This document shows, one piece after another, positions 11,621 through 64,000 of a stretch of 64,000 nt of DNA (the first letter of the stretch is position 1; the number at the start of each line of letters is the position of its first letter). Location: NCBI GenBank assembly GCA_030390025.1, contig CM059431.1, positions 113,400,001-113,464,000 on the forward strand. The letters are read 5' to 3'. The stretch comes from Squalus acanthias. Its lineage: Eukaryota. Made by a program: the position numbers and the translations under genes. The notes beneath the pieces were generated by a model. It worked only from the letters and a program-made list of their open reading frames with translations. It made no database searches and was not told the DNA's origin.

Positions 11621-12204
11621 CATGTAAATACCAAACGTATATAACAAATGAATCATTAATTTGCTATGATCAATGATCCCCTTTCGGATGGTGGCGTTTC
11701 CTTCCTGGGTGTCGGGGGGAGGGGTGGGGAATGTCATTACTCTGGTTCAATTTGACTATGGGCATACCTCGGCTGCCCACCACAGTGGACTGAAGAACCA
11801 AAACATATGAGCAGACCTTTTGGGGATCCAGGCCATGACCCATGCCTCAACTACCAAAAGGCCCCACATCTACTGGCTGGGAGGCTGGTATGCCTCCTTT
11901 CACCCAGCGTATTGACCAACTGGTAGATTCCAGGCCGTAACCGATGGAACTCCCAGCTTCTGAGTCCCCTGCCCTTGGCCATGCCCTCACTGATGTAAGG
12001 GACCATATTTGGGCTGGATAGAGTTTTTTTTCCTTAAAGAGCCTTTCTCTCACCCTTCCAGAAACTGGTTGTGGAGGTTGCAAACCCGCATATGTGTGTG
12101 CATTCATATCTGGTCATGATGCGGAGATGCCAGTGTTGGACTGGGGTGGACAAAAATGAGAAGTTGCACAACACCAGGTTATAGTCCAACAGATTTATTT
12201 AAAA

Positions 12205-12242
12205 TTACAAGCTTTCGGAGCTGTCGCCCCTTCCTCAGGTAA
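12205..12242 (-). ncRNA. Minimal type-I hammerhead ribozyme motif (sense to EDNRB)
   Basis: UUAC-CUGAGGA-A-GGGGC GACA GCUCC-GAAA-GC-UU-GUAA. Confidence 0.75.
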
Positions 12243-12252
12243 AGGTGCACCT

Positions 12253-12290
12253 TTACCTGACGAAGGGGCGACAGCTCCGAAAGCTTGTAA
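12253..12290 (+). ncRNA. Minimal type-I hammerhead ribozyme motif
   Basis: UUAC-CUGACGA-A-GGGGC GACA GCUCC-GAAA-GC-UU-GUAA. Confidence 0.75.
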
Positions 12291-13044
12291 TTTTAAATAA
12301 ATCTGTTGGACTATAACCTGGTGTTGTGCGACTTCTCATTTTCATTCATATCTGGTATAAGCATAGTATAGTCTAGTGTCATTAAGTTGTAAGATATATC
12401 TGTTCTAATGTGATAGGTATTTCAACTGAATAGTTTTGTAGAAGGCAATTACTATTAAGTGACGGTAATAGTTACTAAACTATGATGCTTAGAATCAATG
12501 CGTTTGATTATTCTGTACACATCATAAAATGGATTTGTGCAATTAAACAAATATTTTTTACAAATCATGTCTAGATAAATTATTTCAGAATTTTGAAGTG
12601 TTCAATGCAAAGATTTTCTTTAGACATTTCAGTATAACACTATATTCTGTTTTTATTAATCATCACTGTATCTGTTATAATTCATATTTAATTTATACAG
12701 TCTTGGAATCTTTTCTTTCTCCCTGCAATTTTCTTTGTCCTCTTTTCCTCTCCAATCCTAAAAGTATCAACTCTTACTGGGATACAGCTCCAAGAGCATA
12801 GCCTTCCTTTGGTACCTCGTCCTCCTACTCACTGTTCATGTGTGTGCCTAAATGGTCGGTGTTGGCAGGCAATGGGTGACATCCCAGTGAGGCCAATCCT
12901 GTCCTCAACCAGCATATATATATATACTCATGCACGTTTCAGTAATAATCACTGGATAACAATCACATCAGGAGCCCTTGCTGATTCTTAAACCCCCTCA
13001 TAGCCAAGAGGCATGAGCCCATTTGTAGTGCCCTACTGTTACAC

Positions 13045-13532
13045 CCTTCCAAAACTCTGCTGCCTGTATCCTAACTCGCACCAAGTCCCGTTCACCCATC
13101 ACACCTGTGCTCACTGACCTACATAGGCTCTCGGTTGAGCAACGCCTCAATTTTAAAATTCTCCTCCTTGTTTTCAAATCCCTCCATGGCCTCGCCCCTC
13201 CCTACCTCTGTAACCTCCTCAAGCCCTACAACCCTCAGAGATATCAGCACCCCTCCAATTCTGGCCTCTTGCACATCATTAGTTTTAATCGCACCACCAT
13301 TGGCAGCCGTGCCTTCAGCTGCCAAGGCCCTAAGCTCTGGAATTCCCTCCCTAAACCTTTCTGCCTGTCTACCTCTTTTTCCTCCTTTACGACGCTCCTT
13401 AAAACCTACCTCTTTGACCAAGCATCTGTCCTAATATCTGGCTGTTGAATTTTGTTTGATTACACTCCTGTGAAGTGCCTTGGAATGTTTTACTACGTTA
13501 AAGGCGCTATATAAATACAAGTTGTTGCTGTT
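13045..13532 (+). mobile_element. L2-clade LINE 3' fragment
   Basis: LTDLH.L.VEQRLNFKILLLVFKSLHGLAPPYL...GSRAFSCQGPKLWNSLP plus tail. Confidence 0.88.
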
Positions 13533-14479
13533 GGATGAGATCAAGTTTTATTTATTTTCTGTTCTCTGGGTACATGTGATGCTGGCAATGCAGCATTGCT
13601 ATTGGCCATTCTTAAATGTCCTGAGATGGTGGTGGTGAGTCTTCTTGGCCTGCAGCAGTCCTTGGGATGGTGGCCCTCCCATGAATTCCAGGAGATTGAC
13701 CCAGTGACAATGAATGCCTTGTGTGACTTGGAAGGGAGCTTGCAGGTGAATGTGTTCCCATGATCTGAGATAACTTAGCAGAGGTCAAGGATGTTCCCGG
13801 GCTGTATAGCTGTGCTACCAACTGAGCCATTGGGGGAACCCTCGTGACCTTTTGTATGAATGTTAAATGGAGAAAATCAAAACAGATGTTCTTTTGATTA
13901 AAGAGCCAATGTTACACTTTTAACTGTTTCATTCCTGGCTATGGTGATCAACAAATTGAAAATAAGATTTCATTTATTCCTGTGTCATAAGAATTTTTTG
14001 AATTAAATTGACATAAACTGGTAATGAGCACCCATAATACTAATCACAACCACTAGCTGCCCTGAAAGATTCAAGATCTTTATTCATTTGATAAATGCCA
14101 AGCACCATTCAGAAAATAGATATAATTATTTGAAATGACAAAACCTTACCTAAAGCATAAAAGTCCGAGCAACAAAGTAAAATACTCTATAGCAAACATT
14201 AAGAACCATTCCGTAGAAAATTTGAAACTAGATACAGCATGTTCATGCTTTCTTTTCATATTGCTTAAGATGAGCTTTAACCTGCCATATGCAAATGAAA
14301 TGAAGATTAAAATATAACTTTTTTAATATTGTAAAAGTGTATAAAATCCCACACTATCAGCCCTATTTCCCCATCAGAAAACAAGCTTTAACAGGAGTCA
14401 GTAGCTATTTCTCTGGTATATGTTACGTACACTGCCCTCTTATGGTAATCTGGCGGCTGCACATTCCGTTAAGTCTTAC

Positions 14480-14613
14480 CTCAATAGTTCACATCTGTTG
14501 GGATCATATTCATCGTAGAATATTTTCATTAAAATTCTGCTAAGGTGAAGTGGAAGCCAACAGAGGGCAAAAACGAGCACTAAGCAGAACACAGTCTTTG
14601 CTACCTCACGACG
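14480..14613 (-). CDS. EDNRB: EDNRB coding exon 5 (134 nt, TM6-ECL3)
   Basis: [50 protein letters not shown](S)|GTAAGA. Confidence 0.97.
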
Positions 14614-14969
14614 CTGCAAGGGAATGATCAGAATGTTATTTACACAATTGAACCCTTTGTTTGAAGAAGCTTCAAGATTAGTAATCAAAGACACTTTGAG
14701 GATATTGTATTATTATAGTCATGAGCCTTGGACGAATGCAGTTGAATAAACCCTTTCTACTGCAGTAATACAGTGACACGCTCTCAACATTTTAGCACAT
14801 CACTTCCCCGCGTACCTTTATTGATGTATGAAACTTGCCAACAAGCGGGTGCTTAGCATGGATTTCTGCCACAGGATTGATTTGACGGATGTGTTGGTGT
14901 GACCTGTTCATGTAAATATATTTATTCACACTTCTGGGAATGAGCTTTTCTGCAACTTCAAGTAAGAAT

Positions 14970-16870
14970 CCTTCGGAGTTAGTGGAGTGGGCAGATAGGT
15001 GGCAGATGCAGTTCAATGCGCAGAAATGTGAAATACTATATTTTGGGGGAAAAGGACGGTGAAAGGAGTACACCCTAAATGCTGAGTGGATGAATAGAGC
15101 AATCTAGGACGTTAATCTTTAAAAGTGGAAATGCAGGTATAAAAAAGCCATAAGACGAGTAGGATTTTAGGATTTATGTGTAGGGACCGTGATTACAAAA
15201 GCAAGGAAGTGATGATTTTGTGTTTGGGGGAAAAGGACGGTGAAAGGAGTACATCCTAAATGGTAAAATTCTAATCTGAGTGGATGAATAGAGCAATCTA
15301 GGACGTTAATCTTTAAAAGTGGAAATGCAGGTATAAAAAAGCCATAAGACGAGTAGGATTTTAGGATTTATGTGTACGGGACCGTGATTACAAAAGCAAG
15401 GAAGTGATGATTTTGTGCAAATCATTATCACTGAGTAATCCATGCAGTTCTGGGCACCCTGTTGATGGAAGGTTATTACAGCTTTGAAAATGGTACAGTG
15501 AAAATTCACTAGAATACTACCAGGAATAAGAAGTTATAGTTATGAAGAAAGGCTCAAAGCATTGGGACGATTTTCACTGTAACAGAGAAGGATAAAGGAG
15601 GAAACATAGAAACATAGAAACATAGAAAATAGGTACAGGAGTAGACCATTCGGTCCTTCGAGCCTGCACCGCCATTCAATGCGTTCATGGCTGAACATGC
15701 TAACTCAGTACCCCATTCCTGCTTTCTCGCCATACCCCTTGATCCCCCTAGTTGTGAGTGTTATATCTAACTCCCTTTTGAATATATTTAGCGAACTGGC
15801 CTCAACAACCTTCTGTGGAAGAGAATTCCATAGATTCACCACTCTCTGGGTGAAGAAGTTCCTCCTCAGCTCAGTCTTAAATGGCTTCCCCTTAATCCTT
15901 AGACTGTGACCCCTGGTTCTAGTTTTCCCTAACATTGGGAACATTCTGCCCGCATCTAATTTGTCTAAACCAGTCAGGATTTTAAATGTCTCTATAAGAT
16001 CCCCCCTCATTCTTCTGAACTCCAGTGGATACAAGTTCAGTTGACCCAATCTTTCTTGATATGTCAGTCCGGCCATCCCAGGAATCAATCTAGTGAACCT
16101 TCGCTGCACTCCCTCAATAGCAAGAATGTCCTTCCTTAAGTTAGGAGACCAAAACTGCGCACAATACTCCAGGTGTGGCCTCACCAAGGCCCTGTACAAC
16201 TGCAGCATCACCTCCCTACTCCTGTACTCAAATCCCCTTACTATGAAGGCCATCATTCCGTTTGCTTTCTTGACTGCCTGCTGCACTTGCATTCCCACCT
16301 TCAGTGACTGATGTACCATGACGCCCAGGTCTCGTTGCACCTCCCCTTTCCCTAATCTGCCACCATTCAGGTAATAGTCCGCCTCTCTATTTTTACCACC
16401 AAAGTGGATAACTCACATTTATCCACATTGTACTTCATCTGCCATACATTTGCCCATTCACCCAACCTGTCCAAGTCACTCTGTAGCCTCCTAGCATCCT
16501 CCTCATTGTTCACACTGCCTCCCAATTTAGAGGACATAATGAAAATTTTCAAAATTATGAAAGGTTTTGAGAGGGCTAATAATGAAAGATTGTTGCCACT
16601 GGTTGGTGAATCAGTAATGAGGGGACAGAAACGTAGAACTGGAAGAACAAAGGGGAAAGTTTGAAGAATTATTTTCACAGAGAATTATTGGAACATGGAA
16701 CGTTTTACTGCTATTGAGGCAGAGACTCATTTAAAAGGGAACTACATAAATGCTTGTAAAGGAAGAATATAAAAGGATACGGGGAAAGAACAGGGAATTG
16801 AAATTATGATAGATAACCCCAGTTGAAGAGCTAGTGCTAGCATGATGAGACAAACTGTCGTTCTGTAATT
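14970..16870 (+). mobile_element. Old degenerate CR1 fragment, with an internal tandem duplication and a younger CR1 inserted
   Basis: Decayed RT-region sequence at 14970-15600 that continues at 16530-16870. Confidence 0.7.
15603..16527 (-). mobile_element. Younger CR1 3' fragment
   Basis: 211-aa ORF2 C-terminus (QRDLGV...LYRALVRPHLEYC...WNSLP) and (AAACATAG)n tail at 15603. Confidence 0.93.
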
Positions 16871-19800
16871 TCTGAGATTCGCAGGATCAGGTAGTACATG
16901 TAGGTTTGTGGGGCACTCAGAGTTTAAAGCAGTCAATTACATTCTACTTGGTCCAAACAGAATGCACGCTGTTGAATGGTAATCAACTAAGCCACGGGAT
17001 GGAGATTAAATTGGCAACTTTTAAATAATCTTGATTCAAGTGGAACATTTCTTGGCAAAGCAGTTGTGTGTTCATCAACATTTTGGAGTACTGAAACATT
17101 CACTTTTTTATGCTGATCGGAACAAAATTACATTCTGTACCATTTTTATTAAATGGACAATCTGTACTGTGAAGCAGTATCGGGGAACAGTACAAACCTG
17201 GCTGTAATGGAGAGCTATCTGTGTACTATGCAATCCGATTATAGCTGGTGGATGAATTGAAATCTAAAAGCTAACCTTTTGAGGTAATGGTAGACAACTG
17301 ATTATTACTAGTTAAGTATTCATGTAGACTTGCATTATTGTACACTAGATGGTCAGTATAGCCAGATTGTCTGTGAAAACAGTTTCACTATAACGCAGGA
17401 TTAAGTTGTTTCCATTGCTATCAAGAAAGAGTAGATGTATGCATTTCAGACTATTTACATGGCAGCGTTAGATATTAATGGGCTTTTAAACTCTACATTT
17501 TTAGAAAAAAAATCTTTCATTAGCTGAAAAGTTTTGGCCTTCAGTGTCTTAAAGTTTTTCACATTCACTGAAAAATGGTTTTGTCTGATGCTGCTTTTCA
17601 AAAAGTTTACTACTTTCAGCTTTAAGTTCTTCAGCTTTAAGCTGCCTTCCATTTGATACTGGCTAACAGACAACAGCTTTAGGTAAAGAAGAAGCAGAGA
17701 TTTCTGCTGTCATCGTCCTATATGAGATTGCACAAGCATTAGAGACTGTCAAAATGTTGGGCCATATATGCTAACACATACAGTTGGCATGTATGTGTTA
17801 GCGTACATGCCAACTGTCTTGTGTTTCTCACAGCCATTAGCCTTGTCAGGTCGTTGTGTCTCTATCCATATTGCTCAGTTGAAAAACTGCTCCAGCTCTC
17901 CTTTGAGCACCATTCCCAGCTCTGCCCCAGGGCACTATTCCTGGCTCCTGCTACTACCACCCCAGGGAATTGAACACAGCAGCAAGCTGTGGGAAGAAGT
18001 CTCATGATCCTGATACGGGATCAGGAATTCATGCCCATAGCACGCAGCACATTCAAGTCTCCAGAGCAGCAACAGCAGGTAGGAGCTAGAAGTGTCCCTC
18101 AGAGGAGAGTTGAGGGGGAAATGCCAGAGTGGGGGGGGGGGGGGGGGGGGGGTGGGGGGAAGAGTGCCAGCATAAAATAACGAAGGGGCAAAAGTGCCAC
18201 CGTGAACTGAGGAGGGAAAGAGAGAAAATAATGCTTGGCATAGGGCATCGAGGATGCCTTCATGTCATTGTGACAACTATATAAACCATGGTAAAACAAT
18301 GTAACTCCGAGATTTGATAACATTAGAGTACCGATACTTACCCACAACAGCAAACAATTTCTCCACAATAAATATGGGAAATCTGAACAATTTTGTGCCG
18401 CAATCTTCCACAATACAAATGATGAGAGGGGTGATTTTGCAATCTGCTGCCTCCCTCTGGGAGTGCCACGTTGCAGAATTGCCCCCATCAGGAATACCTG
18501 TGATTTGTGCTATGATCATTTGTGCCTCTTGGCACTTTTAGTGCAGCTAAATCTCATCGGCCTGTATTCAGAGCTGGCTTTATGTTGTCAGCATTTTTGA
18601 AGTTGGCCAGTAAGTTAGTTTTCCAGGTTGGCATGTATATTTTGGAGACTGTACAAGTTTTAGAGAATATGCAAATATTAGAAATTGTACAAGCAATAGC
18701 AGAGAAATGTCAAAATATTAACAGAGGAAGTGAAAATAGTTGTCCTTGCATTAGCAAATTAACCACTTCATTCCCCAGAATGCTCCTGGTTTTTTTTTCG
18801 ATAAACGTAGCTAAGACTTCAAAGGAGAACCCGTGACTGTAGCCAGATTTAGATTTTGGGGGCCAGGTACTTTTTATCTGCTGATCAGATTGATGCAAAA
18901 TTTGGGGCGGTTTTAAGCTCAAAGATTTCCTGCCCCAACTTGTAGAGAGACCAAAATTTTCTGTCCCTCAGATCTTGGCAAAAGCTAATAATAGAAAAAC
19001 TAGAGACAGCTAAAGGCTGAAAAGCCAAGAGCTGTCAGAAGGATTGAAAATTAAGTTGAAAAAAATATCAACAGATTCCCAAGGGCCGGGATTTTGCCTA
19101 CCTGGGCCGGTCCGGTACGGGCGGTGGCCGTGGCGGGTTGTGACCCCGCTGCTGAAAATGACTTTCTCTTAATAGGGCCTATTAAGCCCGCCCAGCGTGT
19201 TACCCGGCCCAATTAAATGGTGCAGGTCTGGTGATGTCATTCATGACACGTTTTCAGCCAGGATCTTTAAGGGGACCATGGCCACATTAGATTTGACGTT
19301 TAATCTAGCATAGTGCTGTCAGTGCACTACAGCATTGGAGTGCTGCAGACACTGACAATCACTGTGCAGAGGCAGAGGGCTGCACCCAGGTTCTCCGATG
19401 ACTCCCTCCCCAGGAGACCAAAACAGCCTGGTTGGAGATTGCAGAGGAGGTCACAAGCAGGAATGTGTTCAGGAGGACCTGGGTACAGTGCCGCAAATGT
19501 TTCAATGATCTCATTAGATCAGGAAACGTTAGTACAAAGCCACACTCAACTTCATCCTGCTGAGCCTCTCATCACATCCCCATCACTCTGCCTTCCCAAC
19601 CCTACTCCTGCACATCCTCACTCACACCAACTTACCTTGCACCTCCACCCATCCCTCTCTCGCTATACATTATCACATCCCCATCTCACTAGCCACCCCT
19701 CACACTCACCCTCATCCTAGTGCAATCATACCAACTAACAACTCACAAGGGCAGCCACTTGGTTGTTTATCCAATGTTTATGTAAATTTTCTGTTAATGG

Positions 19801-20504
19801 GGTGTCAAACATAATTTTTTTTTATTTTCAACACTTTCTGGTCTTTGATAGATTTGTGTGCACGTTTGGAAGTGGCTTAGTGAGTTGCAGTGAATGGTGA
19901 GACATAACGGTACTCCCCCCCCGCCTCCCGCAATAGTGATGAGTGTGAAAGGAATGGGTTTGGTCATTGTTGGGATGCTTTATGGTGTTGGTGTGGGGTG
20001 GTGCCAACCTGGCACATCAAGTGATTGCGGAGAAGGTTGGTGTTGTTGTTGGTGCTGCTGGTGTGCCTGGTGCTGCTGGTGTTGGGGCTCATCATTGTCC
20101 GATTCTGAGGACCAAGGCGAGACAGTATAAACGGCACCCATGTTGATGGAATAGATGGCAGGTGAAATACCAATGACAGAAGCATTCTGTCAATGGTGAG
20201 AGAGTTCTTCCAATGAGGTGAGACTGGATGGAGACTTTGCTGGAAAGACTTGCAGCCTGCAGAATCTGTGCTGAAAATGGACTGAGCAACAGCTTCTGCC
20301 TGAGGAAGGTGATCATCTGTCAGGTGGGAGCTTTTACTGTTCATGCTGTCAAGTAATCAGATGGAGCAATGGCCACGGAACTCCCGCCTCAGGATGACAG
20401 ACGTGCTTCCCGAGCAGCGTGGTTGCCGTGGCCATGCAGTTAATTTAAAAAGTAAGTTAAAAAAGCCTGTTAAGGTTCTGACAACTAGCTGTTAATCATC
20501 TCAA

Positions 20505-20841
20505 ATTTACACTTCATCTAGAGCCATCCTTTGTTTCTTAACCTGTCCCATTATCATCTCCTTTTGCCTTGAATATCTCTTAATGTCTCTTAACCTCTCC
20601 TGCCTTCTATCCTATCACAGACTTTCCCTTTTGTTCTTTCATCCCCTCCCCCCTTTCCCAGCCTCTACACTTGCTTAAAAATCTGTTCCATTTCCTGCTT
20701 TTTTCCAGTTCTGACGAAAGTTCATCGACCTGAAACGTTAACTCTGTTTCTCTCTTCACAGATGCTGCCTGACCTGCTGAGTTTCTCCAGCATTTTCTGT
20801 TTTTATTTCAGATTTCCAGCATCTGCAGTATTTTCTTCTTG
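20505..20841 (+). mobile_element. Second-family Penelope-like 3' fragment nested in the Harbinger derivative
   Basis: 15-bp TSD TGTTAATCATCTCAA at 20490-20504 and 20842-20856; carries a hammerhead motif. Confidence 0.75.
20707..20743 (+). ncRNA. Minimal hammerhead motif, second family
   Basis: AGUU-CUGACGA-A-AGUUC AUC GACCU-GAAA-CG-UU-AACU; one mismatch in stem II. Confidence 0.68.
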
Positions 20842-21112
20842 TGTTAATCATCTCAATTGGGTTTCCCGCTGTTGCTGGTCGGGCCGGCTCCGCGATGACA
20901 AACGAGCCTGGGGGAAAGGCGCGTGGGGGCGGGATGACAACGGGTTCCCGACCCGCTGTCAAAAATAGCAACTTTCCCACTCGACCCACCACCGATCACC
21001 ACTACCACCCCGGTAAATTCCGGCCCTAGTTCAAGTTGGAAAAGGCTTAGTAATGCAGTGAAAGAAACTTAATGCATTTGTATCTCATTCCTTTGACAAC
21101 TATTTTAACAAA

Positions 21113-21290
21113 TGTGAGAAGTCGCACAACACCAGGTTATAGTCCAACAGTTTTATTTGAAATCACAAGCTTTCGGAGCGCTGCTCCTTTGTCAGGTGAT
21201 TTCAAATAAAACTGTTGGACTATAACCTGGTGTTGTGCGACTTCTCACATTTGTCCACCCCAGTCCAACACCGGCATCTCCACATCATGG
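21113..21290. mobile_element. Short Penelope-like fold-back insert with 13-bp TSD
   Basis: TSD CTATTTTAACAAA at 21100-21112 and 21291-21303. Perfect 59-bp arms 21108-21166 / 21196-21254 enclose a minus-strand hammerhead core with CUGACAA (G8 lost). Confidence 0.88.
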
Positions 21291-22042
21291 CTATTTTAAC
21301 AAAGGCATTGATAACAGAGAAATTTGGAATGATACACTAAGCGTTCTTACGATAATACTGCATGGCGTAACTTGCAGACTAGAGAGACCAACGTACTGAT
21401 TGTCATCCCCTTACACATAGAAACTCAGGAAAAAACAGGAGGAAAAATGTGAAAGGCTATAAAGTTAGTGGAAAATACAGGTAAACTCTCCTTTTCATAA
21501 TATATTTTGTTGGAATATTTTACTTTGTTTTTTGTTGCATTCTTACTTGCTCAAGTAAATTATCAACTACAGCAGATATTAATCTTTAAGTGATTGATCA
21601 TTGGGTTTTAATCTTTGCAACTTGGTAAAGGTGATAATCAAGCAAGAGACAACATCTGCAGTAAATAAGAGACAATCTTTTGTTTGTGCTGAATTATTTG
21701 ATCTCAATCCCTGGGTTGGGAAGTTCGGGGGAGGGTGGTGATGAGAATCAGCCGGGTTCCCATTTCCGATCATTACCCAGTAACCCCAGCTGAAAAGGTA
21801 CATATGTATGGACAAAGGCTAGGGTTGGGCTTGGCCATACTGCCCCCATAGTCGAATAGTTCACCATAAATTGCTGTGTGAGCTTACGTGTGGAACGGCC
21901 AATTAAGTGAGGTAGTGGAGTGCGAGCAGCAGCCAGAAAGGAGCCAACACCTTCATAAAAGGGAGTGGCAAAAAATAGTGGAGGGGAAATGAAGGAAATA
22001 AAATGAAAGTGTACTGATAGTTAGACTTCCTGTTAAAGATCG

Positions 22043-23316: not shown

Positions 23317-23492
23317 CACGCTAACTCTATTTAATTGGGGAAAAGACTTAAATCAACCTCATAACAAAGGGTCACAATATTTAGCAAGCAACATGTTACT
23401 GAAAATGACTATCGATTTTGTTTAAGCCATTTATATTTGAAATGCAGTGCTCGTTGCTGAATTGCAAAAATAAAGTTTCAAGTTAAGATTCA

Positions 23493-23804
<312 letters not shown>

Positions 23805-28531: not shown

Positions 28532-28640
28532 AATGAGAAGTCGCACAACACCAGGTTATAGTCCAACAGTTTTATTTAAAATTACGAGCTTTCGGAGCTC
28601 CGCTCCTTCTTCAGGTACAGGTACCGGCATCTCCGCATCA
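28532..28640 (-). mobile_element. 109-bp Penelope-like insert with 12-bp TSD
   Basis: TSD TTATAAAACATA at 28520-28531 and 28641-28652. Confidence 0.85.
28583..28617 (-). ncRNA. Minimal hammerhead motif with C at the cleavage position (sense to EDNRB)
   Basis: UAC-CUGAAGA-A-GGAGC GGA GCUCC-GAAA-GC-UC-GUA. Confidence 0.72.
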
Positions 28641-31560: not shown

Positions 31561-31687
31561 GGGGGAATGTTATCAATGGGGGCCCGTTGGAGGCGGGACT
31601 GCTGCTTGTCGGGTTTCAGTCCCGCCCCCATCAAGGTCTGGCCAACCCACGCTATTTTCCCTTGATTGACCTCGTTAAGCCCGCCCA
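31561..31687. mobile_element. Harbinger MITE left-end fragment
   Basis: Homologous to 46722-46848. Confidence 0.7.
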
Positions 31688-32050
31688 ATGAGATGTGTCA
31701 CAGGGGATCCAACGTGTCAAATCCTGCTGTCTGCAGTTTTTTTTGGGGTTTGTTTTTTTTGTGTTTTTTTAAAAAAAACTGGAAAGACAGACAACGATGT
31801 CGAGTCACGTTCTGTAGCGTGACATGAACCCTGTGACACATCTCATTGTCTTGGCTGTGCTCTTGGTGTGTCTTTGATGTAAGGACACCTTCCCTGAAAG
31901 ATTGTATCTCTGCAGTTTCTGTGTTTATATACTGTGAAATATTGTAGATTCACTCATTGTAACTTTACCTGAGGAAGGGGCGACAGCTCCGAAAGCTTGT
32001 AATTTTAAATAAATCTGTTGGACTATAACCTGGTGTTGTGCGACTTCTCA
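31688..32050. mobile_element. Penelope-like 3' region with an inverted segment; hammerhead at 31965-32002 (+)
   Basis: Minus-strand GFMSRYRT* and 3'UTR as in 63575-63755, then flips to plus; UUAC-CUGAGGA-A-GGGGCGACAGCUCC-GAAA-GC-UU-GUAA. Confidence 0.8.
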
Positions 32051-34473: not shown

Positions 34474-34593
34474 AGTGCCTAGAATCTGAAAATGAACCTG
34501 AAGGCGGTAGTAGTCGGTAATAATTTTGTAATGGGTTACAAAATTATTACAGACTACTACCGCCTTCAGTTTCATTTTCAGATTCGAGGCACT
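34474..34593. repeat. 120-bp near-perfect inverted repeat
   Basis: 58-bp arms, 3 mismatches, 4-nt loop TGGG. Confidence 0.92.
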
Positions 34594-45316: not shown

Positions 45317-45318
45317 GT

Positions 45319-52788: not shown

Positions 52789-52934
52789 TCACAAGTTATA
52801 TTTACACAAAATATGAACAGATAAACTAACTTGTTTCATGGCAGATCCTTTACAGAATCATTGTCAGTTAAGAAGTAAAACCATGATGTGTGCATGCTTG
52901 TTTCCAAATAGGCACTGCTCATGGTAAACTGGTT

Positions 52935-53772: not shown

Positions 53773-54446
53773 GAACATAAGAACAGGAGGAGGCCATTCA
53801 GCCTCTCGAGCATGTTCCGCCATTCAATGAGGTCATGGCTGATCTGTGACCTAACTCTATATACAGGAAACTCTTTGGTATCTGGCACGTACGGGACCGG
53901 GATGGTGCCAGATTATTAAAAATTCCAGATAACGGAGATGTATACCTACCAAGGTACGAGAGCCCCGTTACACAGCCACTTGTGCAGGAGCCCCGGTTAC
54001 ACGGCCACTTGTGCAGGAGTCCCGGTTACACGGCCACAGATCCAGGAGTCCCTGTTACACGGCCACAGGTGCAGGAACCCCGGTTGCACGGCCACTAATA
54101 TACAGTAAAACTTACCTAAACCTACTCCTGAATTTTGCCGGTTAATAGAGAATTCCGGATATTTAGGTGCCGTTTAAATGAGAGTTTCCTGTACCTGCCT
54201 TTGGCCCATATCCCTTAATGCCTTTGGTTAACAAAAAGCTATCAATCTCAGATTTAAGATTAACAATTGAGCTAGCATCAATTGCCATTTGCTGAAGAGA
54301 GTTCCAAACTTCTACCACCCTTTGTGTGTAGAAGTGTTTCCTAATTTCACTCCTGAAAGTTCTGGTTCTGCCCCCTAGTCCTAGAATTCCCAACCAGCAG
54401 AAATAATTTCTCTCTATCTACTCTATCTGCTCCCCTTAATATCTTG
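53773..54446 (-). mobile_element. CR1 3' fragment inside the transposase
   Basis: Same subfamily as 602-1062; AGGA at both junctions. Confidence 0.88.
53864..54191. mobile_element. pogo/Tigger-like MITE with a 29-bp minisatellite
   Basis: TA|CAGGAAACTCT...AGAGTTTCCTG|TA; about 4.7 copies of CAGGAGCCCCGGTTACACGGCCACTTGTG at 53960-54096. Confidence 0.87.
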
Positions 54447-55361
54447 AGGAGGCCTTACCCACCTAAGGTCTTCCGATAGCACTTCTCCTACATACACCTA
54501 AACCAGGAGCAGTGTATTAGGAGGCTCCGCTTCACCAAGGAGGTGGTCACAGAACTCTGTCGCCTCCTCCAACCAAACCTGCAGCCTCAGAACAGGGCGA
54601 CGACGCCTCTCCCAGTGGCCCTCAAGGTCACCGTGGCCCTGAATTATTTTGCCACCAGAACCTTCCAGTCTGCAGCAGGAGACATAGCTACATCTCGCAG
54701 TTCACCGTCCATCGCTGCATCTGGGAGGTCACAGAAGCTCTGTACTCCAGGAGAAGGGACTTCATTGTCTGCTCTCTGAACAGAGAGAAGCAGGAGGAGT
54801 GCGCATGTGGCTTTGCCAGGATATCGGGCTTCCCCATGGTGCAGGGCACCATCGAATGCACACATGTGGCTTTGCAGGCACTGCATATCAATCCTGAGAT
54901 GTTCTGCAACTGCAAAGGCTACCACTCACTTAATGTGCCGTTAGTGTGTGGCCACGCCCAGCGCATCCTGATGGTCAATGCCCACTATCCTGGCAGCAGT
55001 CATGATGCCTTCACCCTGTGCCAGTCCGGTGTGCCTGCAATCTTCCAGCCACCACGTCGAACCCGAGGGTAGCTGCTCAGAGACAAGGGCTATCCGCTCT
55101 ATACCTGGCTGATGAATCCCCTCCGCAACCCCACCACTTGTGGCCAACACTCATGTAATGACAACCATGCTGCCATGAGGAACGTCATCCAGCAGACCAT
55201 TGGCATGCTAAAGCAATGGTTCCGCTGCCTTGACCGCTCAGGAGGAGCCCTCCAGTACATGCCGGAGCGGGTGTCCCATTTCATGGTGTTCTGCTGTATG
55301 CTCCACAATTTGGCCATCATGAAAACGCAGCCCTTGCCACCACGGGTTCTGGGGCCACCAC

Positions 55362-55372
55362 AGGAGGAGGAG

Positions 55373-55406
<34 letters not shown>

Positions 55407-55446
55407 AGGAGGAGGAAGGGAGGAGGAGGAGGAGGGAGGGAGGAGG
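55362..55446 (+). repeat. (GAG)n tract encoding the acidic tail of the transposase
   Basis: Poly-Glu in frame after CCMLHN. Confidence 0.9.
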
Positions 55447-55718
55447 CAGGCAGCAGTTCCCCGTTACAGACGGGCTGTCAGTGAGTGCCTCATCAGACTC
55501 TGGTTCCAGTGAATGAAACCCCAGATTCCTGTTGCTCACCACTTCCCCATCTCACCATACCTCTGTCACGGAACAGCATAGCGTCCTCCTGGGCACAAAG
55601 CTGAAATGAGAGCCACCACAAAACACACATTCCAAACAGAATTTATAAATTTATCAAATACAAGTCAAAAGAATAAAGTCAATGAATCACCCTTGTGCTT
55701 TCCCTTAGTGTCTGTCTT

Positions 55719-57589
55719 TTATTTACCTTTTCCTACTCTAGTGCTCCTACGAAGTGCTCCCCCAGTAGCTGCAGCATGGCTGGTGGAAGGCTGCTGACTT
55801 TCAGTGGGGGAGACTGCAGATGGCCGTGCAGGATAACCTCGAGTAGCTCTGGCCCTAGGGGGCCCGGCTGTAGACTGCGCCACCTCAGTAGGCGCGGCAG
55901 CAGTCTGGGCTGGCTGGATGACAGGCAGCAGCAAGGGCATTGGCGGAGTGGCAGTGGTGGGGGTACGAATGTTGACATCCTGAGAGAGGACATCAGCTTC
56001 TTGCTCCACGGAGCCACTGCCACTACCCTAGGGAGCACAGATTGCGGGACTGCACTGACACCCTGCAAGCCCCTTTCGACACTCATAAACCCAGCCATGA
56101 TGGCAGCAGTCTGATCTTGCATGGCAGCAAGCTGAGATGGCAGGAGAGTAGTCTGAGCTTCCACTGCAGCACTGAGACATTGGGTCACTTCCGACTGTGC
56201 TGCAATGAAAGGTGAGAGTTCACCTATCACAGCCAGCATCATGGTTGGGTCCACAAGTTCACTAATGGAGTTGCCCATCATTTCCATCCTGGAAATCATG
56301 GACTCCAAGCTCCGTGCAAAGCCCCGTGCAGTGCTGGAGCCAGACTCCTCCATGCTCCTTGACACTGTCAAGAGGCTGTCTGGCAGGCTTGCCTTTGCAC
56401 CAAGCGTTTCTGTGTGCCTGCCCATCACTCTTTTTCTGAAGGCCGCCCCATCGAGTTCATCATCTGAGTCCTGTGCAGCAGAACTTGTGCGTGAACTTGC
56501 CCTTCGGTGAGCTGGCACCCGAGCTACACTTTCCCCGTGGCCTGGCTGCAGCCTACTCATGCCCGGTGACTCACCACATGCAGACCCTGCCTCTATACTG
56601 CCCTCCAATGTATGTGCAGTGCCATTTTCTGAGCTTGTGTCTGCGAGTGTCAGATGCAGTGCCGGTGTGTTGTCTTCTCCTCCATCACTCTCCTCCTCCA
56701 TCACTCCAGGGGCAGGCTGGGCTGCTGGCAGTTCTTGGGTATCTGAAAGGAGTAATGCACAAGTGTCGGGTTGTGGTGAGGGCGGAGGGGGGTGGGGGGA
56801 AGGAAGATATCTATGCATATACCATCAGCAGCTTGTAAGTGAGAAGAGATTTTGGGATGAGGGGTAAGTGGGATGTGAGAAGAAGGATTAGGTATGAGCA
56901 TACCATCATCATCAGTAATGCTACCCACTTCACCGCTCACCACGGATTCTGTGATTGCCCCTCCAATTATTTTGAGAACTGCTTCCTCCAGCTCCGTGAG
57001 GTTCTGAAGACTGGTTTGCCCTCCACCCGTCTGCTGGTGCTCCCGACGGTTATGCGGCACCTTTGCCTGCAAGAGAAAGGGAAGTGTGCCAGTGAGTGTG
57101 GTGCAATGTGTTTGGGTGATGTGCCTGTCATGATTGAATAGCTGTATGTGCAAGGTGTGAGATGTAGGTGTGAGTCTTGCAGCTGTGGTAAGTGTGTGAG
57201 AGTGAAGTGAAGCTATGATTGCGAGGTATGAGTGGTGATAGCTAGAGATTGTTGGTTGGTGAGTGATGGGGTGCGGTGCATTTCGCATTGTGTGAGGCTT
57301 GTGGTGGTGCAGATGGTGGGATATGGCATTTGATGATGCATTCACGCACCTTGACCACTCGCGTGAGGTCATTAAACTTTTTGCGGTACTGGATCCAGGT
57401 CTTGGGGACAACACTTGTCGCAGTGATGGCTTGAGAAATCTCCTCCCAGAGACTTCTGGTGTTCAGCCTTGAAGGCCTCCTGCCCCCTTGTGGGTAAAGG
57501 ACCTCACGGCGTCTTTGTACCCCTAGGACCAAGGCCTCCAGTGCCGCATCAGAAAATCTTCTTGCCCTTTTCCTTGGCTGATGGGCCAT
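55719..57589 (-). pseudogene. Harbinger Myb/SANT-like DNA-binding gene, 3 exons (57589-57350, 57066-56904, 56742-about 55719)
   Basis: MAHQPRKRARRFSDAALEAL...WEEI...KTWIQYRKKFNDL. GT-AG introns join in frame (VVK|AKV; DDD|DTQE). Probable frameshift near 56010-56030. Confidence 0.85.
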
Positions 57590-58457
57590 GGCTATGTTCA
57601 GAATGACAATGAGGTGCTTCTGCAACAAAGCACCTCCCCTTTAAGTTGTGCAGAGGGCCTGGGCCAAACTTTATTGCCAGTAGACTGCACTCGATATTGG
57701 CCCCCCTGTTGAGCGCTAAGCCAATCAGCTGCTCCTTTAGCACTGAGATCAGCGCTGCAATCATTATAATGAGCAGGCAGCATGACCTTTGCGTGCTGCC
57801 TGCACCACTTTGAACGGGCGCAGGCACATAGCGTTGCGCGGTGCCCCGCCCGTTTTCAGGCCTTATCCAATTTCTAGGCCTAGAGGTTTACAGCACAGGA
57901 GAAGGCCTTTCAGCCCAGCGTGTCTGTGCCAGCTGTTTGCTAGAGAAATCCAAAATTATTCCCATCACCCTGCTCTCTCCCTGTCGTTCTGTATCTTCCT
58001 CGGCTTCAAATACTTTCCCTTTAAAGGCGCAACGGTCTCTGCCTCAAATTCACCCTGTGGGAAATGCATTCCAGGCCCCAACAATCTCATGTGTAAAGAA
58101 TTTCTCCAAACCTCTTCCCTCACTCTTTTAGTAATGATATTAAATTGATGATCCCCTCATGGCTGATTTCCCCAAACAATGGAAATAATCTTTCCCTATT
58201 CACTCTATCAAAATGCTTCATATCTTTTTTTTTAAAAAAAACCTCTGTGCTGAGTTAGTTGAATTCAGGGCACCACAGATTGCTTCAGTATCCCTGGATG
58301 AGGAAAGGAAAAATCAATCAGTCTTCACACTCCTGAATACTATAGAATGACCCCTGTTGGAACTATAAAGATATATGGGGAACGACAGAACCAATCTTGA
58401 GTGTGATGCTCCCTGTGTTTGAGCAGCCTGCCATCGCCCACTACCAAGGCTCACATA

Positions 58458-59690
58458 TGAATAGGAACATAGGAACAGGAGTAGGACATTCAGCTCATTG
58501 AGCCTGTACCGCAATTAGATCATGGCTGATCTGTACCTCAACTGCATTTACCCATCTTTACTCCATATCCCTTAATATCCTTACATAACAAAAATCTATC
58601 AATCTCACTTAAGAGATTTTCAATTGACCTAGCCTCAACAGCTTTTTGAGGGAATGAATTCCAGATTTCCACTACCCTTTGTGTGAAGAAATGCTTCCTG
58701 AATTCACCCCTGAATGGCCTGGCTCTAATTTTTAAGGTTATGCCCCTTTGTTCTGAACTTCTCCTCCAGAGTTTCTCTCTATCTATCCAACCAGATCCTT
58801 TAATCATCTTAAACACCTCAATTAGATCACCCCTTAACCTTCTACTCTTGAGGGAATACAATCCTACTCTATGCAGCATGTCCTCATAATTTAACCCTTT
58901 TAGCCCCGGTACCATTCTGGTGAATCAGCACTGCACCCCCTCTAAGGCCAATATCTCTTCTTCTCAGGCAGTCCCTCGGAACCGAGGATGACTTGCTTCC
59001 ACATTAAAAATGAGTTCTCAGGTGACTGATGAGTCCAATGCGGGACCTACAGTCTCTGTCTCTGTCACAGGTGGGGCAGAAGGTGGTTGAAGGAGCGGGT
59101 GGGTGGGGTGCTTGGGTTGACGTGCGCACCTTGCGCTGCTTGCGCTTGGCTTCCGCTTGCTCCCGGCGAAGAGGCTCGAGGTATTCGGCGCCTTCCCGGA
59201 TGCTTCTCCTCCACTTTGTGCGGTCTTGGGCCAGGGATTCTCAGGTGTCGGTGGGGATGTTGCACTTTTTCAAGGAGGCTTTGAGGGTGTCCTTGAAGCG
59301 TTTCCTCTGCCCACCTGGGGCTCTCTTGCCATGTTGGAGCTCCGTGTAGAGTGCTTGTTTTGGGAGTCTCGTATCCTTCGATGCGGTGCCAAGCACTGAA
59401 TGCAGTACTCTAGATGCGGACCAGCCCGAGCTTTATACAACTGTAGCATAACTTCCATCCCTTTGCATTTCAGCCCCTTTGAGATAAAGGCCAACATTCC
59501 ATTAGACTTTAAAAAAAAATGTTGTACCTGTCTACTAGCTTTTAGTGATTTCTGTACATGGACCCCTAAATCTCTCTGCTCCTCCACAATTCCCAGCTTC
59601 TTATCATTTAAACAAAATATATTTATTAGTGCCCAAAGTGGATGACCTCACACTTCCCCACATTAACTCTATCTGCCACAGTTTGCCCCT
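58458..59690 (-). mobile_element. CR1 3' fragment interrupted by an RTE fragment
   Basis: EEQRDLGVHV...HLEYC before, and RRLRGDLIEVF..WNSFP after, the insertion. Confidence 0.88.
58956..59372 (-). mobile_element. RTE-clade LINE 3' fragment
   Basis: Hand translation: ELQHGKRAPGGQRKRFKDTLKASL..DRTKWR..CPTCDRD..CRSRIGLISHLRTH (C2H2-like end) and a (GAA)n tail. Confidence 0.82.
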
Positions 59691-59928
59691 TGAACATCAT
59701 CGGCACTTGGATAAACCATCAGAGGCAGCTGGCACCCATGGATTGTATCCTAACAAGGAACCAATGCCTTTTGGGGAAGAGGGCAGGGGAGAAAACTTTA
59801 CTTTTAATAGCTTGTGCAAAATTAAAAGATAGCTTGAGTTATTTCTAAATGTTTTCCCTAGTAGTCATAAGAGAAATAACCACCTTGATGCATGTTGTGT
59901 TATATTAGTTAACTGTCAACCTAACAGA

Positions 59929-60392
59929 GAAGAAAGAAAGACTTGCATTTATATAGCGCCTTTCACAACCTCAGGACATCCCAAAGCACTTCACAGCCAT
60001 GAAGTACTTTTTTGAAGTGTAGTCACTGTTGTAATGTAGGAAATGCGGCAGCCAATTTGCACACAGCAAGCTTCCACAAACAGCAATATCCTAATGACCA
60101 GATAATCTGTTTTTTAGTGATGTTGGTCGAGGGATAAATATTGACCAGGAGAACTCCCCTGCTCTTCTTTGAAATACTACCATGGGATCTTTTACATCCA
60201 CCTGAGAGAGCAGACGGGGCCTCGGTTTAACGTCTCATCTGAAAGACTGCACCTCCGACAGTGCAGCGCTCCCTCAGTACTGCACTGGAGTGTCACCTTA
60301 GATTTTTGTGCTCAGGTCTTTGGAGTGGGACTGTGAACCCACAGCCTTCTGACTCAGAGACGAGAGTGCTACCAACTGAGCCACGGCTGACA
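59929..60392 (-). mobile_element. Full-length DeuSINE (SacSINE1-like)
   Basis: A box TGGCTCAGTTGG, full body, (CTTT)n tail. Confidence 0.9.
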
Positions 60393-62210
60393 CAGAGCGA
60401 GTAAGTTCAGGCTAACGTGGTTCCATGTGCTGTTTAAATTAAAATAAAACACTGGAGAGGGTTTATACCTGTTTTATAAATTGTTGTGGCACTTCTGGAC
60501 AATCGGGAATCTGGTTTGCCATTGCAAGATCTGAGGTAAAAATGTGCACCTGAACTAACAAAAGCAACATGCAGCCTACAGAGCAACATTGCTGCATTTA
60601 GTTTCATGCTGGCTTTACTTTAAAATGCTGCCATCATTGGCAATCTGGAATTAATAGAGGCAGCATGTAAAGGTAAATTAGGCAGCATTTTGAGGCATCT
60701 TGGGTCCTCTTGAGGCAATAGTGCCTCAAGTGGACCCAAGACTCACTTAAAGAGATGCGTTTAGGTACAACCTCCAAAGGCAGCAGTGGCCTGGCAGCAA
60801 ATATAAACATTCAGAGGCTGCAAATCTGTGGGTCATGATCCTGGCGGTTATGGAGCGATCACGTCCGCTGGTGCCCTCCAGCGCTGAACCTACCAGAGTT
60901 TGTGGGGTCAAGAGGAGGGCATCTCATTAGCATGGGAATGGTGGGCACAAGCCCTTCTTTTGGGGGCATCTCCGGTACCTGCCAGCACATGCCAGCTGGA
61001 AACTCAAGCACCTGCCTATCCTTGGGGGCAGGGGGGGGGGGGGGGAGGGTTTGCCCAGGCTGCCCCTGATACCAGCCACGCGTTCCTCGGCCCCCTATGT
61101 TAGTGGGAAGATCTCCCTTTTAAAAAAAAATGAGAGGGCTTTCTTCAGGGGTCCAGGCCACTTTCCTGGGGCCCACTCCCATATGGAGGTCAGTATGCCT
61201 CACCTCACTGAGCATATCATCCTCCACTGAAAGGTTAGGTCCTGACTGAGAAAAAGGAGTTGTGACTCCCTGGCGCTGACCCCTTGCTGCCACTTGCCTT
61301 GTAAGGGGCGGACAGTGGTGCTGCCCCTAACAGGGCAATGAGGAAACCCCTGGCACAGCTGAACTCCACCATTTGCTGAGGGGTTCTACCAGCCTCCTGC
61401 CGGAGATACAGTCGGAGACTGGAGGAACCCTAGAGGAATTTCGGCTCCTCATTCTTGTGGCACAGTTCTGTACCAGCTTTAAAGAGCCAGGTGATATAAA
61501 TGGAGAAGCTTTTGTGACACTGTCGCTGCAAAATTATTTCTGGAAGCTGCTCGGTGATGTAAATGCAACATAGTCAGCAGCAGCAGCAAAGTACAACATG
61601 GGAAAAGTGTATTGACTTTGTATCTTCAACTAAGGAGAGAAGTGGTAAGTCAAAGAATTAGTGTTTCTTTTCATTTGCTGGCTGATCGTAGTGAGTTAGA
61701 ATCCGGGATTTGAACAGCTGGAACAGATGATGATTTCAAAAGACTGCTCGCTCAGTTTTATGGCTTTATTGGCTTGATTGCTGTCATGTGGCTCAGCAGA
61801 AGCAGAATCCATGCTTTGGTCCAACTAAAACTTCAAAAGCTCAAGGGTCTGCATGGAGCTTCCCCCAAAAAGTGTTTTGACAACCTTAAACGGATCATTC
61901 CATCAGTGCACATTGCATTCTGGGCTGCAGATTTGGGAACTCCACCCAGACCCCCAAACCAAATTGCAGTTGGGGTCTTGCCAAATGGCAAAGCTGTACA
62001 GTGTAAGCAAGGTGCCTCAGGGTTTGGAAACACATTAAACTATTTACACTTTAATTTTGTAATTGCATCTTGGCTGAATTTAAAGCTGTTAAGGGTTCAA
62101 AAATATTGTATAATTAGGAGTTCTAATTTTATGGCAGTCCGACAGACATGAGGGAATCAGCTTTAAGAAATTCGAAAAGTCCTTTGATTCTGTACATTTA
62201 ATTTTTTTTT

Positions 62211-64000
62211 ACATAGATACATAGATACATAGAAGATAGGAGCAGGAGTAGGCCATCCGGCCCTTCGAGCCTGCTCCGCCATTTAATGAGATCATGGCTG
62301 ATCCTCCAATTCAGTATCCCGTCCCCGCCTTCTCTCCGTAACCCTTAACCCCTTTTGCCTGTAGAAATATATCTAATTCCCTCTTAAATATATTTAATGA
62401 GCTGGCGTACACTGCCCTCTGTGGCAATGAGTTCCATAGGTTCACCACCCTCTGAGTGAAGAAATTCCCCCTCATTTCTGTCCTAAATGGTTTAGCCCTT
62501 ATCCTTAAATTATGTCCTCTAGTTCTGTTCTCACCCGCCAAGGGAAACATTCCTTCTGCATCTAGTCTGTCTAGACCTGTCAGAATTTTATACACTTCTA
62601 TGAGGTCCCCTCTCAATCTTCTAAACTCCAGTGTGTACATCCCTAAACTACATAGTCTCTCCTCATAGGTCAATCCCGCCATTCCTGGTATCAGCCTGGT
62701 GAATCGCCGCTGCACCCCCTCCATGGCAAGAACATCTTTCCTCAGATGAGGCGACCAAAACTGTACACAGTACTCGAGGTGTGGTCTCACCAGTGCCCTG
62801 TACAGCTGCAGCAAGGTATCCCTGTTCCTGTATTCCAACCCTTTTGCTATGAAGGCCAGCATACCGTTTGCCTTCTTGACCGCCTGTTGCACCTGCATGC
62901 TCGCCTTCAGTGACTGGTGTACAAGAACACCCAGGTCTCTCTGTACTTCCCCCTCTCCCAATTTATTGCCATTTAAATAATAATTTGCCCTCCCGTTCCT
63001 GCACCCAAGGTGGATAACTTCGCACTTGTCCACATTATAGTGCATCTGCCATTTATCCGCCCAATCACCCAGTCTGTCCAAATCGCTCTGGAGCTTCCTG
63101 GTCTCCTCCTCTGAGCCCACCCCCCCTCCTAGTTTAGTGTCGTCTGCAAATTTGGAAATGCTGCATCCGACTCCCTGATCCAGGTCATTAATGTAAATTG
63201 TGAACAGCTGGGGACCCAGGACAGATCCCTGCGGTACCCCACTTGTTACTGCCTGCCATTCAGAAAATGAGCCGTTTATTCCAACTCTCTGTTTTCTATC
63301 TGACAAAATTGAGAGGTCGCACAACACCAGGTTATAGTCCAACAGTTTTATTTGAAATCACAAGCTTTCGGAGCTATCACTCCTTCCTCAGGTGAAGTAA
63401 ATTGGATACAGAATCGCCAGAGCATATATAGATGGAAAAAAAAGCATGTGTACTTTACAATTGCAGACCAATAAATTAAATCATCCTGACTATCTGCCAA
63501 GGTGTGATAAAGTTAATTAAGTCAGCCAGGAAGGTACCACATCAAAAGACGTAGCAAGATACAACTGAGACAATGAGGTGTAGTCGCAGGGGTTCCAACG
63601 TGTCAAAAGCTGCCGTCTGTATGTAAAACGAAAAGCTTTAAAAAAAATTTACTTTTTTACTGGGAAAATTTTTACTTTTTTACTGGGAATCACATCTGTG
63701 AACAAGCTAACGATGACTCGAGTCCGGATCACGTCATGTATCGTGACATAAACCCAAGATCCCGATTGAGACCGTCTTCATGAGTTCGGAACTTGGCTAT
63801 CAGTTTCTGCTCGATGATTTTGCGTTGTCGTGTGTTTCTAAGGTTGCCTTGGAGAACTATCTGACAGCCAGTTCTCTATCCACGTCAATACTTTCCCCTT
63901 TATCCCATGAGCTTCAATTTTCCCTGCTAATCTTTTATGTGGGACCTTATCGAAGGCCTTTTGGAAGTCCAGGTACACCACATCTACTGGCTCTCCCCCA
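62211..64000 (-). mobile_element. Young CR1 (open ORF2 RT half), interrupted by Penelope, runs off the window end
   Basis: About 330 uninterrupted codons at 62311-63305; DVVYLDFQKAFDKVPH..WIENWLSD continues at 63857-64000; (ACATAGAT)n tail. Confidence 0.94.
63306..63856 (-). mobile_element. 5'-truncated Penelope-like element: GIY-YIG C-terminus, 3'UTR and hammerhead (63358-63395)
   Basis: VLQGNLRNTRQRKIIEQKLIAKFRTHEDGLNRDLGFMSRYMT* (63856-63729); 10-bp TSD CTATCTGACA; UCAC-CUGAGGA-A-GGAGU GAUA GCUCC-GAAA-GC-UU-GUGA. Confidence 0.9.

Follow-up and report, generated by a model that had tools for sequence, protein, structure and literature searches.

Do hammerhead ribozymes that a mobile element has left in the introns of a host gene act on that gene? 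The shark EDNRB locus raises this question, since an original prediction for the window (the whole 64-kb stretch of DNA analysed here) described six minimal hammerheads in Penelope-derived inserts, two of them placed to cut the EDNRB pre-mRNA. We put a probability of about 85% on the reading that the motifs are pLTR hammerheads of a young, abundant EN+ Penelope-like family, left as truncated insertion ends, and that the EDNRB copies are passengers.

All six motif sites were confirmed in position and strand. A scan with a structure descriptor, which demanded the core, a stem II of at least 4 bp, a palindromic stem III, and a stem I of at least 3 bp, returned the same six sites and no others, with no site in each of 100 Markov-1 controls. 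One exact pattern matched five times in the window and not once in 100 dinucleotide shuffles, and an Rfam search (E up to 10) produced 23 matches, none to a hammerhead family. Two further candidates were rejected. A seventh site at 10187-10229 fits a loose pattern but is without stem I and fails the descriptor, and an apparent second hammerhead family was a repeat that matches window positions 55142-55737 and runs antisense to transposase-like frames, whose motifs suggest the Harbinger type.

The six copies had been described as sharing a common CUGANGA. The core (C3-A9, G12-A14, A15.1, U16.1, and H17) was intact in five of them, but the copy at 21163 reads CUGACAA, a G8A change. Every copy carried an extra base separating position 9 from position 10.1, a G10.1-C11.1 pair, and the self-complementary AGCU that had been proposed to replace stem III, and both N7 and loop II varied freely, as predicted. 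The U-A to C-G change in stem I between copies was confirmed, and stem I of the copy at 28583 spans only 3 bp. Stem II remained paired, as claimed, but its changes within the window were one-sided (G.U/A-U and C-G/U.G) rather than two-sided. The six sites are genuine hammerhead motifs of Penelope-like elements.

They belong with the minimal hammerheads (min-HHRs) of Cervera and de la Pena 2014 (PMC4209133), for which that article describes the same type-I topology with helix III absent and a palindromic 15.2-16.2, an extra base between 9 and 10.1, G10.1-C11.1, and a short helix I. Also in common are several consensus variants per genome, a predominance of lone copies left by truncated elements, and pairs on opposite strands separated by 100-700 bp. 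Helix II has 5 bp in the shark compared to 7-8 in Schistosoma, and shark helix I has 3-4 bp. Genome-wide, one exact hammerhead pattern had 71,346 matches and its reversed control had none; the corresponding figures there, about 4,000 in coelacanth and about 9,000 in Xenopus, were obtained by other search methods. The text sections and two supplementary files searched for that article name no shark. As a motif, the present family extends this 2014 class by a shark member.

The source element could be recognized from other loci. At L031, two hammerheads on the same strand, separated by 3,136 bp, flank an 877-residue frame with a Pfam RVT_1 match (E=2e-9), while a single frame at L032 contains both RT and GIY-YIG regions, and L034 matches Pfam GIY-YIG at E=7.6e-4, weaker than the curated cut-off. 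The unit of about 3.1 kb runs from a hammerhead through a tail to the ATG of the ORF, then through the RT and GIY-YIG ORF and a 3' UTR to the next hammerhead. In its native placement, seen in the L031 unit and at window positions 63306-63856, the hammerhead lies in the pLTR, sense to the ORF. Together with the Pfam matches, these two examples support the predicted Penelope origin and minimal type-I class. Between two subfamilies the ORFs show 88-94% identity, which indicates a young family.

A CX2-5CxxC linker between RT and EN, a criterion taken from Craig et al. 2021 (PMC8557442), is visible in the L031-L034 translations. Its CX4CxxC form distinguishes the shark ORF from Penelope and Poseidon, which have no linker (PMC8557442), and by this feature the element is probably of the Neptune or Nematis type. 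Neptune/Nematis-type EN+ elements (PMC8557442) share with it the C-terminal GIY-YIG, the linker, and a DKG motif, as well as partial tandems, inverted 5'-truncated arms, and a 30-40-bp tail at one end. Unlike in those elements, no microsatellite target was seen in the shark, where targets were varied and often inside LINEs.

The window had been described as holding six copies, but those at 12205 and 12253 are arms of one insertion (a 98% inverted repeat), which leaves five insertions. This two-armed inverted Penelope-like insertion, at 12115-12342 in EDNRB intron 5, is bounded by 14-bp target-site duplicates at 12101-12114 and 12343-12356 and has a tail of about 38 nt (about 12115-12152) in its left arm only. 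It holds a core-intact minimal hammerhead on the minus strand, sense to EDNRB (12205-12242), and a second core-intact copy on the plus strand, antisense to EDNRB, in the other arm (12253-12290). In intron 4, the inverted insertion at 21113-21290 has a target-site duplication of 13 bp and carries the broken-core minimal hammerhead on the minus strand, sense to EDNRB (21163-21199, G8A at 21190). Its arms are joined via 4-nt stem I microhomology, the tail-bearing arm (21200-21290) ends at the scissile bond, and the predicted fold extends stem I to about 55-60 bp.

Intron 1 contains a short minus-strand insertion at 28532-28640, which has a target-site duplication of 12 bp and retains a stub of the tail (about 28622-28640); its core-intact minimal hammerhead on the minus strand is sense to EDNRB and has a CUC cleavage triplet and the 3-bp stem I (28583-28617). 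Also in intron 1, at 31686-32050 on the plus strand, is a piece of Penelope 3' UTR (31829-32050) accompanied by an inverted arm of UTR sequence (31686-31831); a target-site duplication was looked for at this insertion and none was found, and its core-intact minimal hammerhead on the plus strand is antisense to EDNRB (31965-32002). The fifth insertion is a direct, 5'-truncated minus-strand copy within a LINE ORF (63306-63856, 10-bp target-site duplication); it matches the complete L031 unit with 94% identity across 560 nt. It retains the final 42 codons of the element ORF, the end of the GIY-YIG endonuclease region (63732-63857, minus strand; 42 of 42 identical to the L034 ORF), and, downstream on the same strand, a core-intact minimal hammerhead (63358-63395) that lies upstream of EDNRB. 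None of the 13 tandem-repeat rows of the window covers a hammerhead copy.

The structure had been proposed to be under selection in this lineage. Across 28 aligned haplotypes, variation fell at N7, loop II, H17, and stem positions where pairing was kept. Pairing held in 96.4% of alignment cells, which 0 of 500 shuffles reached, although this control ignores relatedness. Two-sided change occurred in 2 of 9 pairs, and the stem I change follows one path on the tree, with the pair series U-A, U.G, C-G ordered along a tree made from the upstream UTR (23 of 28 rows). The fourth stem I pair was broken in 7 of 28 haplotypes; in all 28, G10.1-C11.1 was G-C and H17 was U or C. Judged from this alignment, covariation exists but is thin. 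The proposal of selection holds in that the structure is kept among active lineages, but its covariation was overstated, as few events underlie it and the family is young. The next 43 nt downstream vary as little as the core itself, and part of the core's conservation could therefore stem from protein binding or from the youth of the family. For the tail region, single folds predict a 9-bp hairpin, whereas folding of the alignment gives a different consensus structure in which 0 of 17 pairs show two-sided change.

We consider it extremely improbable that the resemblance is due to chance and the apparent covariation to shared descent or to the inverted-repeat structure of the insertions. A single young family is ancestral to all copies, inversion produced the long stem I of copy 21163, and two-sided change is confined to the two pairs noted above, all as such an account would have it. 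However, stem I also pairs in native UTRs without inversion, U.G intermediates stand between the two Watson-Crick states, and the core, extra base, G10.1-C11.1, and palindrome all occur at the known position of Penelope hammerheads.

Core variants were found genome-wide. U4C was amplified to 3,996 copies, or 5.6% of the canonical count, so this core is still able to spread; its activity in vitro is reported to be much lower (PMC3088659). This amplification counts against the catalytic reading of the motif. All three G15.2 changes together numbered 548 and were sporadic, with none compensated among the first 100 listed. A hand count of the first 100 G8A copies listed found C at N7 in 99, and sequence context identifies G8A as CpG decay.

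Insertion ends were informative about the integration template. Arm ends were bimodal, with 46 and 34 of 91 at two sites about 38 nt apart. Among 35 arm pairs, which include one spurious pairing of two window insertions, exactly one tail was present in 31 and two tails in none, and a duplication of at least 7 bp was present in 26; two-armed insertions mostly have one tail and 12-14-bp duplications. Genome-wide, 80,782 of 83,815 arms (96.4%) read through the scissile bond, which argues against linear RNA cut at this bond as the template for integration. Arm loss across the scissile bond was 3.6%, compared to 5.1% over the next 4 nt. Junctions at the bond like that in 21113-21290 are rare (104 of 83,815 arms); this count and the lower loss at the bond show that an arm end at the scissile bond, as in copy 21163, is not a general fossil of cleavage.

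In the mechanism that we propose, reverse transcription would start downstream of the hammerhead, at a distance of 50-95 nt, so that nearly every truncated copy has one, and integration would use RNA that is uncut, or re-ligated, at the scissile bond. In the active element, the motif would be a slow ribozyme requiring a partner copy or the element protein, and would process tandem transcripts or circularise them. Selection on source elements would maintain it, while dispersed copies, including those in EDNRB, would be passengers decaying through ordinary mutation, with no appreciable cutting of the host transcript.

The green anole's Poseidon element PAc (Frangieh et al. 2024, PMC11167929) similarly has a tail defined by two RT start sites, a hammerhead upstream of these sites, and uncut RNA as the main insertion substrate; the shark genome-wide counts, in which integration did not proceed from RNA cut at the bond, agree with this in vitro result. 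The second start site falls on the ATG of the shark ORF, with the hammerhead about 95 nt upstream, whereas the PAc ORF starts in stem II (PMC11167929). Animal non-LTR retrozymes (bioRxiv 10.64898/2026.07.22.740005) also carry type-I hammerheads from Penelope pLTRs, and they are reported from one chondrichthyan, but these are tandem non-coding repeats, whereas a coding element is the source of the window copies, which are its ends, single or inverted.

A fold retained in source elements for a non-catalytic job, such as protein binding, translation, or RT positioning, with cleavage dispensable in this lineage, is an unlikely but credible alternative. It would account for insertion ends without an excess at the scissile bond, but cleavage followed by circle ligation would equally leave no end there. 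The size of the U4C lineage next to the total for the three G15.2 changes is also in its favor, but a viroid with the U4C variant stays infectious (PMC3088659). In the anole, ribozyme mutants did not impair in vitro insertion and RNA-seq showed no ends at the cleavage site (PMC11167929), and Naiads thrive without canonical hammerheads (PMC8557442). Set against these points, the samples seen show no lineage-level change in the rest of the core, in the extra nucleotide, or in AGCU, and H17 never departs from U or C in the aligned haplotypes. The in vivo role of Penelope hammerheads has been described as unclear (PMC8557442), and the shark family offers a large sample for this question.

EDNRB has seven coding exons on the minus strand (3073-38811), mapped from translation, spliced contigs (exons 2-6), and similarity of exon 3 to a solved endothelin B receptor (E=4e-28). 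Exons 1-4 lie at about 38811-38353, 25563-25446, 25332-25131, and 23651-23502, and exons 5-7 at 14613-14480, 10883-10775, and about 3222-3073. This map confirmed sense copies in introns 1 and 5; within the gene, three copies are sense and two antisense. Public RNA runs show introns 2-5 spliced, with the joints of 2, 3, 4, and 5 listed in four of four runs, although these are assembled contigs whose source individuals may be without the insertions, and intron 1 fell only partly within the stretch covered.

The proposed cleavage of EDNRB pre-mRNA was unsupported, as predicted folding in context disfavors both intact sense copies and the intron-4 copy is G8A. The intron-5 copy at 12205 is predicted to be locked in a 95-bp hairpin, with the antisense arm transcribed first; its stem I and II probabilities are 0.00, and the hammerhead fold lies 68 kcal/mol above the MFE. 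For the intron-1 copy at 28583, stem II has a probability of 0.19 alone, falling to 0.00-0.03 with 30-200 nt of flank, and stem pairing in context is predicted at 0.01-0.03. Two-strand folding of the bare motifs placed an AGCU duplex in the MFE for one of six. An active monomer fold of the domesticated type was not predicted in the host transcript, where helix III is absent and context folding is unfavorable. On these models, cleavage of EDNRB by these copies is unlikely, and the hammerheads inside the gene are most likely inert passengers.

It is highly improbable that the sense copies in introns 1 and 5, acting alone, mutually, or with element RNA in trans, cut the pre-mRNA and alter EDNRB output. 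Both are core-intact, and no more than 2-6 kcal/mol separates copy 28583 from the hammerhead fold, a gap that a chaperone could close. However, its nearest sense partners are 7.4 kb (the G8A copy) and 16.4 kb distant, copy 12205 is sequestered as described, the in-gene copies show the mixed orientation given above, and spliced mRNA is observed. In PMC4209133, single minimal hammerheads gave no detectable cleavage, and the anole hammerhead cleaved only together with its protein (PMC11167929).

A broader form of this idea, which we regard as very unlikely, is that Penelope hammerheads are protein-gated, such that, on expression of the element, its protein or RNA could activate sense copies in introns by the many thousands, and host pre-mRNAs would be cut across the genome. 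If so, copy 28583-28617 would be one target, given its few kcal/mol from an active fold. Cutting of host introns would be a new transposon action on host genes, although the EDNRB evidence points against it. Amniote hammerheads in RECK and C10orf118 (PMC3088659) also lie within host introns, but these are single conserved loci with co-transcriptional cleavage in vitro, whereas the shark copies belong to a recent, 70,000-copy family in which helix III is absent. More than 70,000 copies, with the U4C and G8A variants as natural controls, would make this genome the best one for testing in vivo cutting by Penelope hammerheads.

We found six minimal hammerhead motifs in the window, as the original prediction had proposed: 12205-12242 (minus), 12253-12290 (plus), 21163-21199 (minus), 28583-28617 (minus), 31965-32002 (plus), and 63358-63395 (minus). 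A descriptor combining core, stems, and palindrome recovered exactly those six window sites and none in 100 Markov-1 controls, while the exact hammerhead pattern matched five times, compared to zero in 100 shuffles. An Rfam search of the window returned no hammerhead match. The core of 21163-21199 was not intact, however, carrying a G8A change. The G8A pattern matched 1,187 copies genome-wide, and N7 was C in 99 of the first 100 matches listed (counted by hand), which marks the change, on sequence grounds, as CpG decay. Because the 12205 and 12253 hammerheads are two arms of a single insertion, the window holds five hammerhead-bearing insertions, above the genome average, but the window was selected for them. 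A lone site at 10187-10236 (plus) has CUGAUGA and the family's 3' half with a long spacer and without stem I; it could be either chance or a very decayed relative.

A common downstream stretch continued from every hammerhead copy in the window, and target-site duplications of 10-14 bp flanked four of the five insertions. Across the 3.71-Gb genome, the exact pattern matched 71,346 times (about one per 52 kb), versus zero for a reversed control. L031, a locus fetched from elsewhere in the genome, is a near-complete unit in which a same-strand hammerhead pair, 3,136 bp apart, encloses one frame that matches Pfam RVT_1 (E=2e-9) and also contains a DKG motif and a CX4CxxC linker. A GIY-YIG region scored weakly on another such locus, L034, to whose ORF the final 42 ORF codons retained in the insertion at 63306-63856 are identical. 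By the criteria of PMC8557442, these sequences identify an EN+ Penelope-like element of Neptune/Nematis type. The ORFs of two of its subfamilies were 88-94% identical. The stretch from hammerhead to ORF start (12115-12195, minus; 21209-21289, plus; about 4145-4222 in L031) was nearly invariant across subfamilies, contains both reverse transcription (RT) start sites, and ends on ATG; it is probably a protein-binding or priming structure.

The shark copies, as putative ribozymes, showed all testable sequence features of metazoan Penelope minimal hammerheads and are a real, ordinary addition to that known kind. No report naming this shark family was found in the literature searched, including two of the three PMC4209133 supplements, and it may have been listed before. 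A 2026 preprint (bioRxiv 10.64898/2026.07.22.740005) describes hammerhead retrozymes in one chondrichthyan.

To describe insertion anatomy, we used 91 distinct arms (single truncated element ends) from the window and fetched loci. The sample is not random: most of the loci lie within the first 3.5 Mb of a single contig, and in part they were chosen by motif. Arms ended 34-44 nt past a fixed anchor in 46 cases and 73-82 nt past it in 34, the second site being the ATG of the element ORF. Among 35 paired arms (one pairing spurious), 31 had exactly one tail, an extra stretch of ~38 nt, and none had two; a duplication of at least 7 bp, mostly 12-14 bp, was present at 26. The two clusters of arm ends and the tail agree with the anole element, which has two RT start sites and a tail (PMC11167929), and the pairs match the one-ended tail described in PMC8557442. 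Copying would begin just downstream of the hammerhead, so nearly all truncated copies would carry it, which may explain the dispersed family.

The same end position in different LINE-like repeat copies was shared by 26 of the 91 arms in 11 groups, some of these groups being two sides of one site. Examples are 63306-63856 in the window and fetched loci L002 and L018, as well as L009/L034/L054 and L036/L037/L064. Truncations and tail sides differed among these arms, and the pattern suggests possible hot spots of repeated insertion. No strict consensus was shared by the target duplications as a whole. In one inverted pair, L021/L022 (G000:C1, a contig of this genome, about 889,250-889,470), each arm comes from a different subfamily; this would imply either distinct template RNAs for the two arms at a single site or a pair of nested events.

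We counted exact matches stepwise across the scissile bond, covering subfamilies that match the patterns. Of 83,815 arms reaching the bond, 80,782 (96.4%) continued 4 nt past it and 76,670 (94.9% of those) extended 8 nt; 104 arms had a junction at the bond as in copy 21163. Since sporadic change at one non-CpG site was ~0.8% (548 copies), the 3.6% loss can be attributed mostly to point mutation. That almost all arms pass the bond argues from sequence against a linear 3' fragment, cut at the bond, as the usual integration template. If the RNA were cleaved and then ligated into a circle, as proposed in PMC4209133, the arm pattern would be the same.

The prediction of covarying stems held in part. 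Thirty arms keep their native upstream UTR, and we aligned 28 of them, omitting two that were near-duplicate partners. Of the alignment cells at stem positions, 96.4% were paired, compared to a shuffled mean of 94.0% (0 of 500 shuffles as high) and 23-48% in slid controls. Two-sided change was confined to two of nine pairs. One is the third pair of stem I (C-G 16, U-A 9, U.G 3); the other, the outer pair of stem II, showed it in a single U-A row. In stem I the fourth pair was broken in 7 of 28 rows. The core was no more invariant than the 43 nt downstream of the hammerhead, which, like the 88-94% identity of the two subfamily ORFs, cautions against reading too much into the covariation. On an upstream-UTR tree of the 23 rows with sufficient sequence, stem I states needed two changes, with U.G rows lying between the U-A and C-G groups, so the third pair appears to follow a clean compensatory path, but as one event. 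Selection on the hammerhead fold in source elements is thus likely, although few events lie behind this claim. A U4C core had 3,996 exact matches genome-wide (for example, L039:3156-3278, minus, in a fetched locus), with loop variants of its own. Its outer stem II pair was often U-A or U.G instead of C-G (U-A ~46, U.G ~25, C-G ~26, mismatch 3 in the first 100 listed, by hand count). U4C is much weaker in vitro, yet a viroid tolerates it, according to PMC3088659.

Cleavage of EDNRB pre-mRNA by its sense copies, originally raised as a possibility, now seems unlikely. Exon 3 of the window gene matched solved endothelin B receptors (E=4e-28), and GT..AG joints of introns 2, 3, 4, and 5 were present in contigs from all four runs of two studies; these contigs, presumed RNA, do not span intron 1 and may come from individuals without these insertions. 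EDNRB contains three sense and two antisense hammerhead copies. In equilibrium predictions, the intron-5 sense copy, preceded in the pre-mRNA by its own reverse complement, had stem probabilities of 0.00 and a hammerhead fold cost of 68 kcal/mol. In the intron-1 copy another pairing competes with the hammerhead fold, which is 2-6 kcal/mol away; the stem II probability was 0.19 for the motif alone and 0.00-0.03 in context. The intron-4 copy had the full predicted fold but lacks G8. In published work, single minimal motifs did not cleave and dimers cleaved at low levels (PMC4209133), and the anole hammerhead cleaved only with protein, with RNA-seq ends at the site not found (PMC11167929).

EDNRB intron 1 also contains a near-perfect hairpin of ~98 nt (34485-34582), which scored below the cut-offs of several miRNA models (best E=1.7e-6) and could be a small inverted-repeat element. 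A transposase-like element at about 54500-57650, which we take from its motifs to be Harbinger-type, is related to sequences at other places in the genome, which are 73-82% identical to it across ~500 nt.
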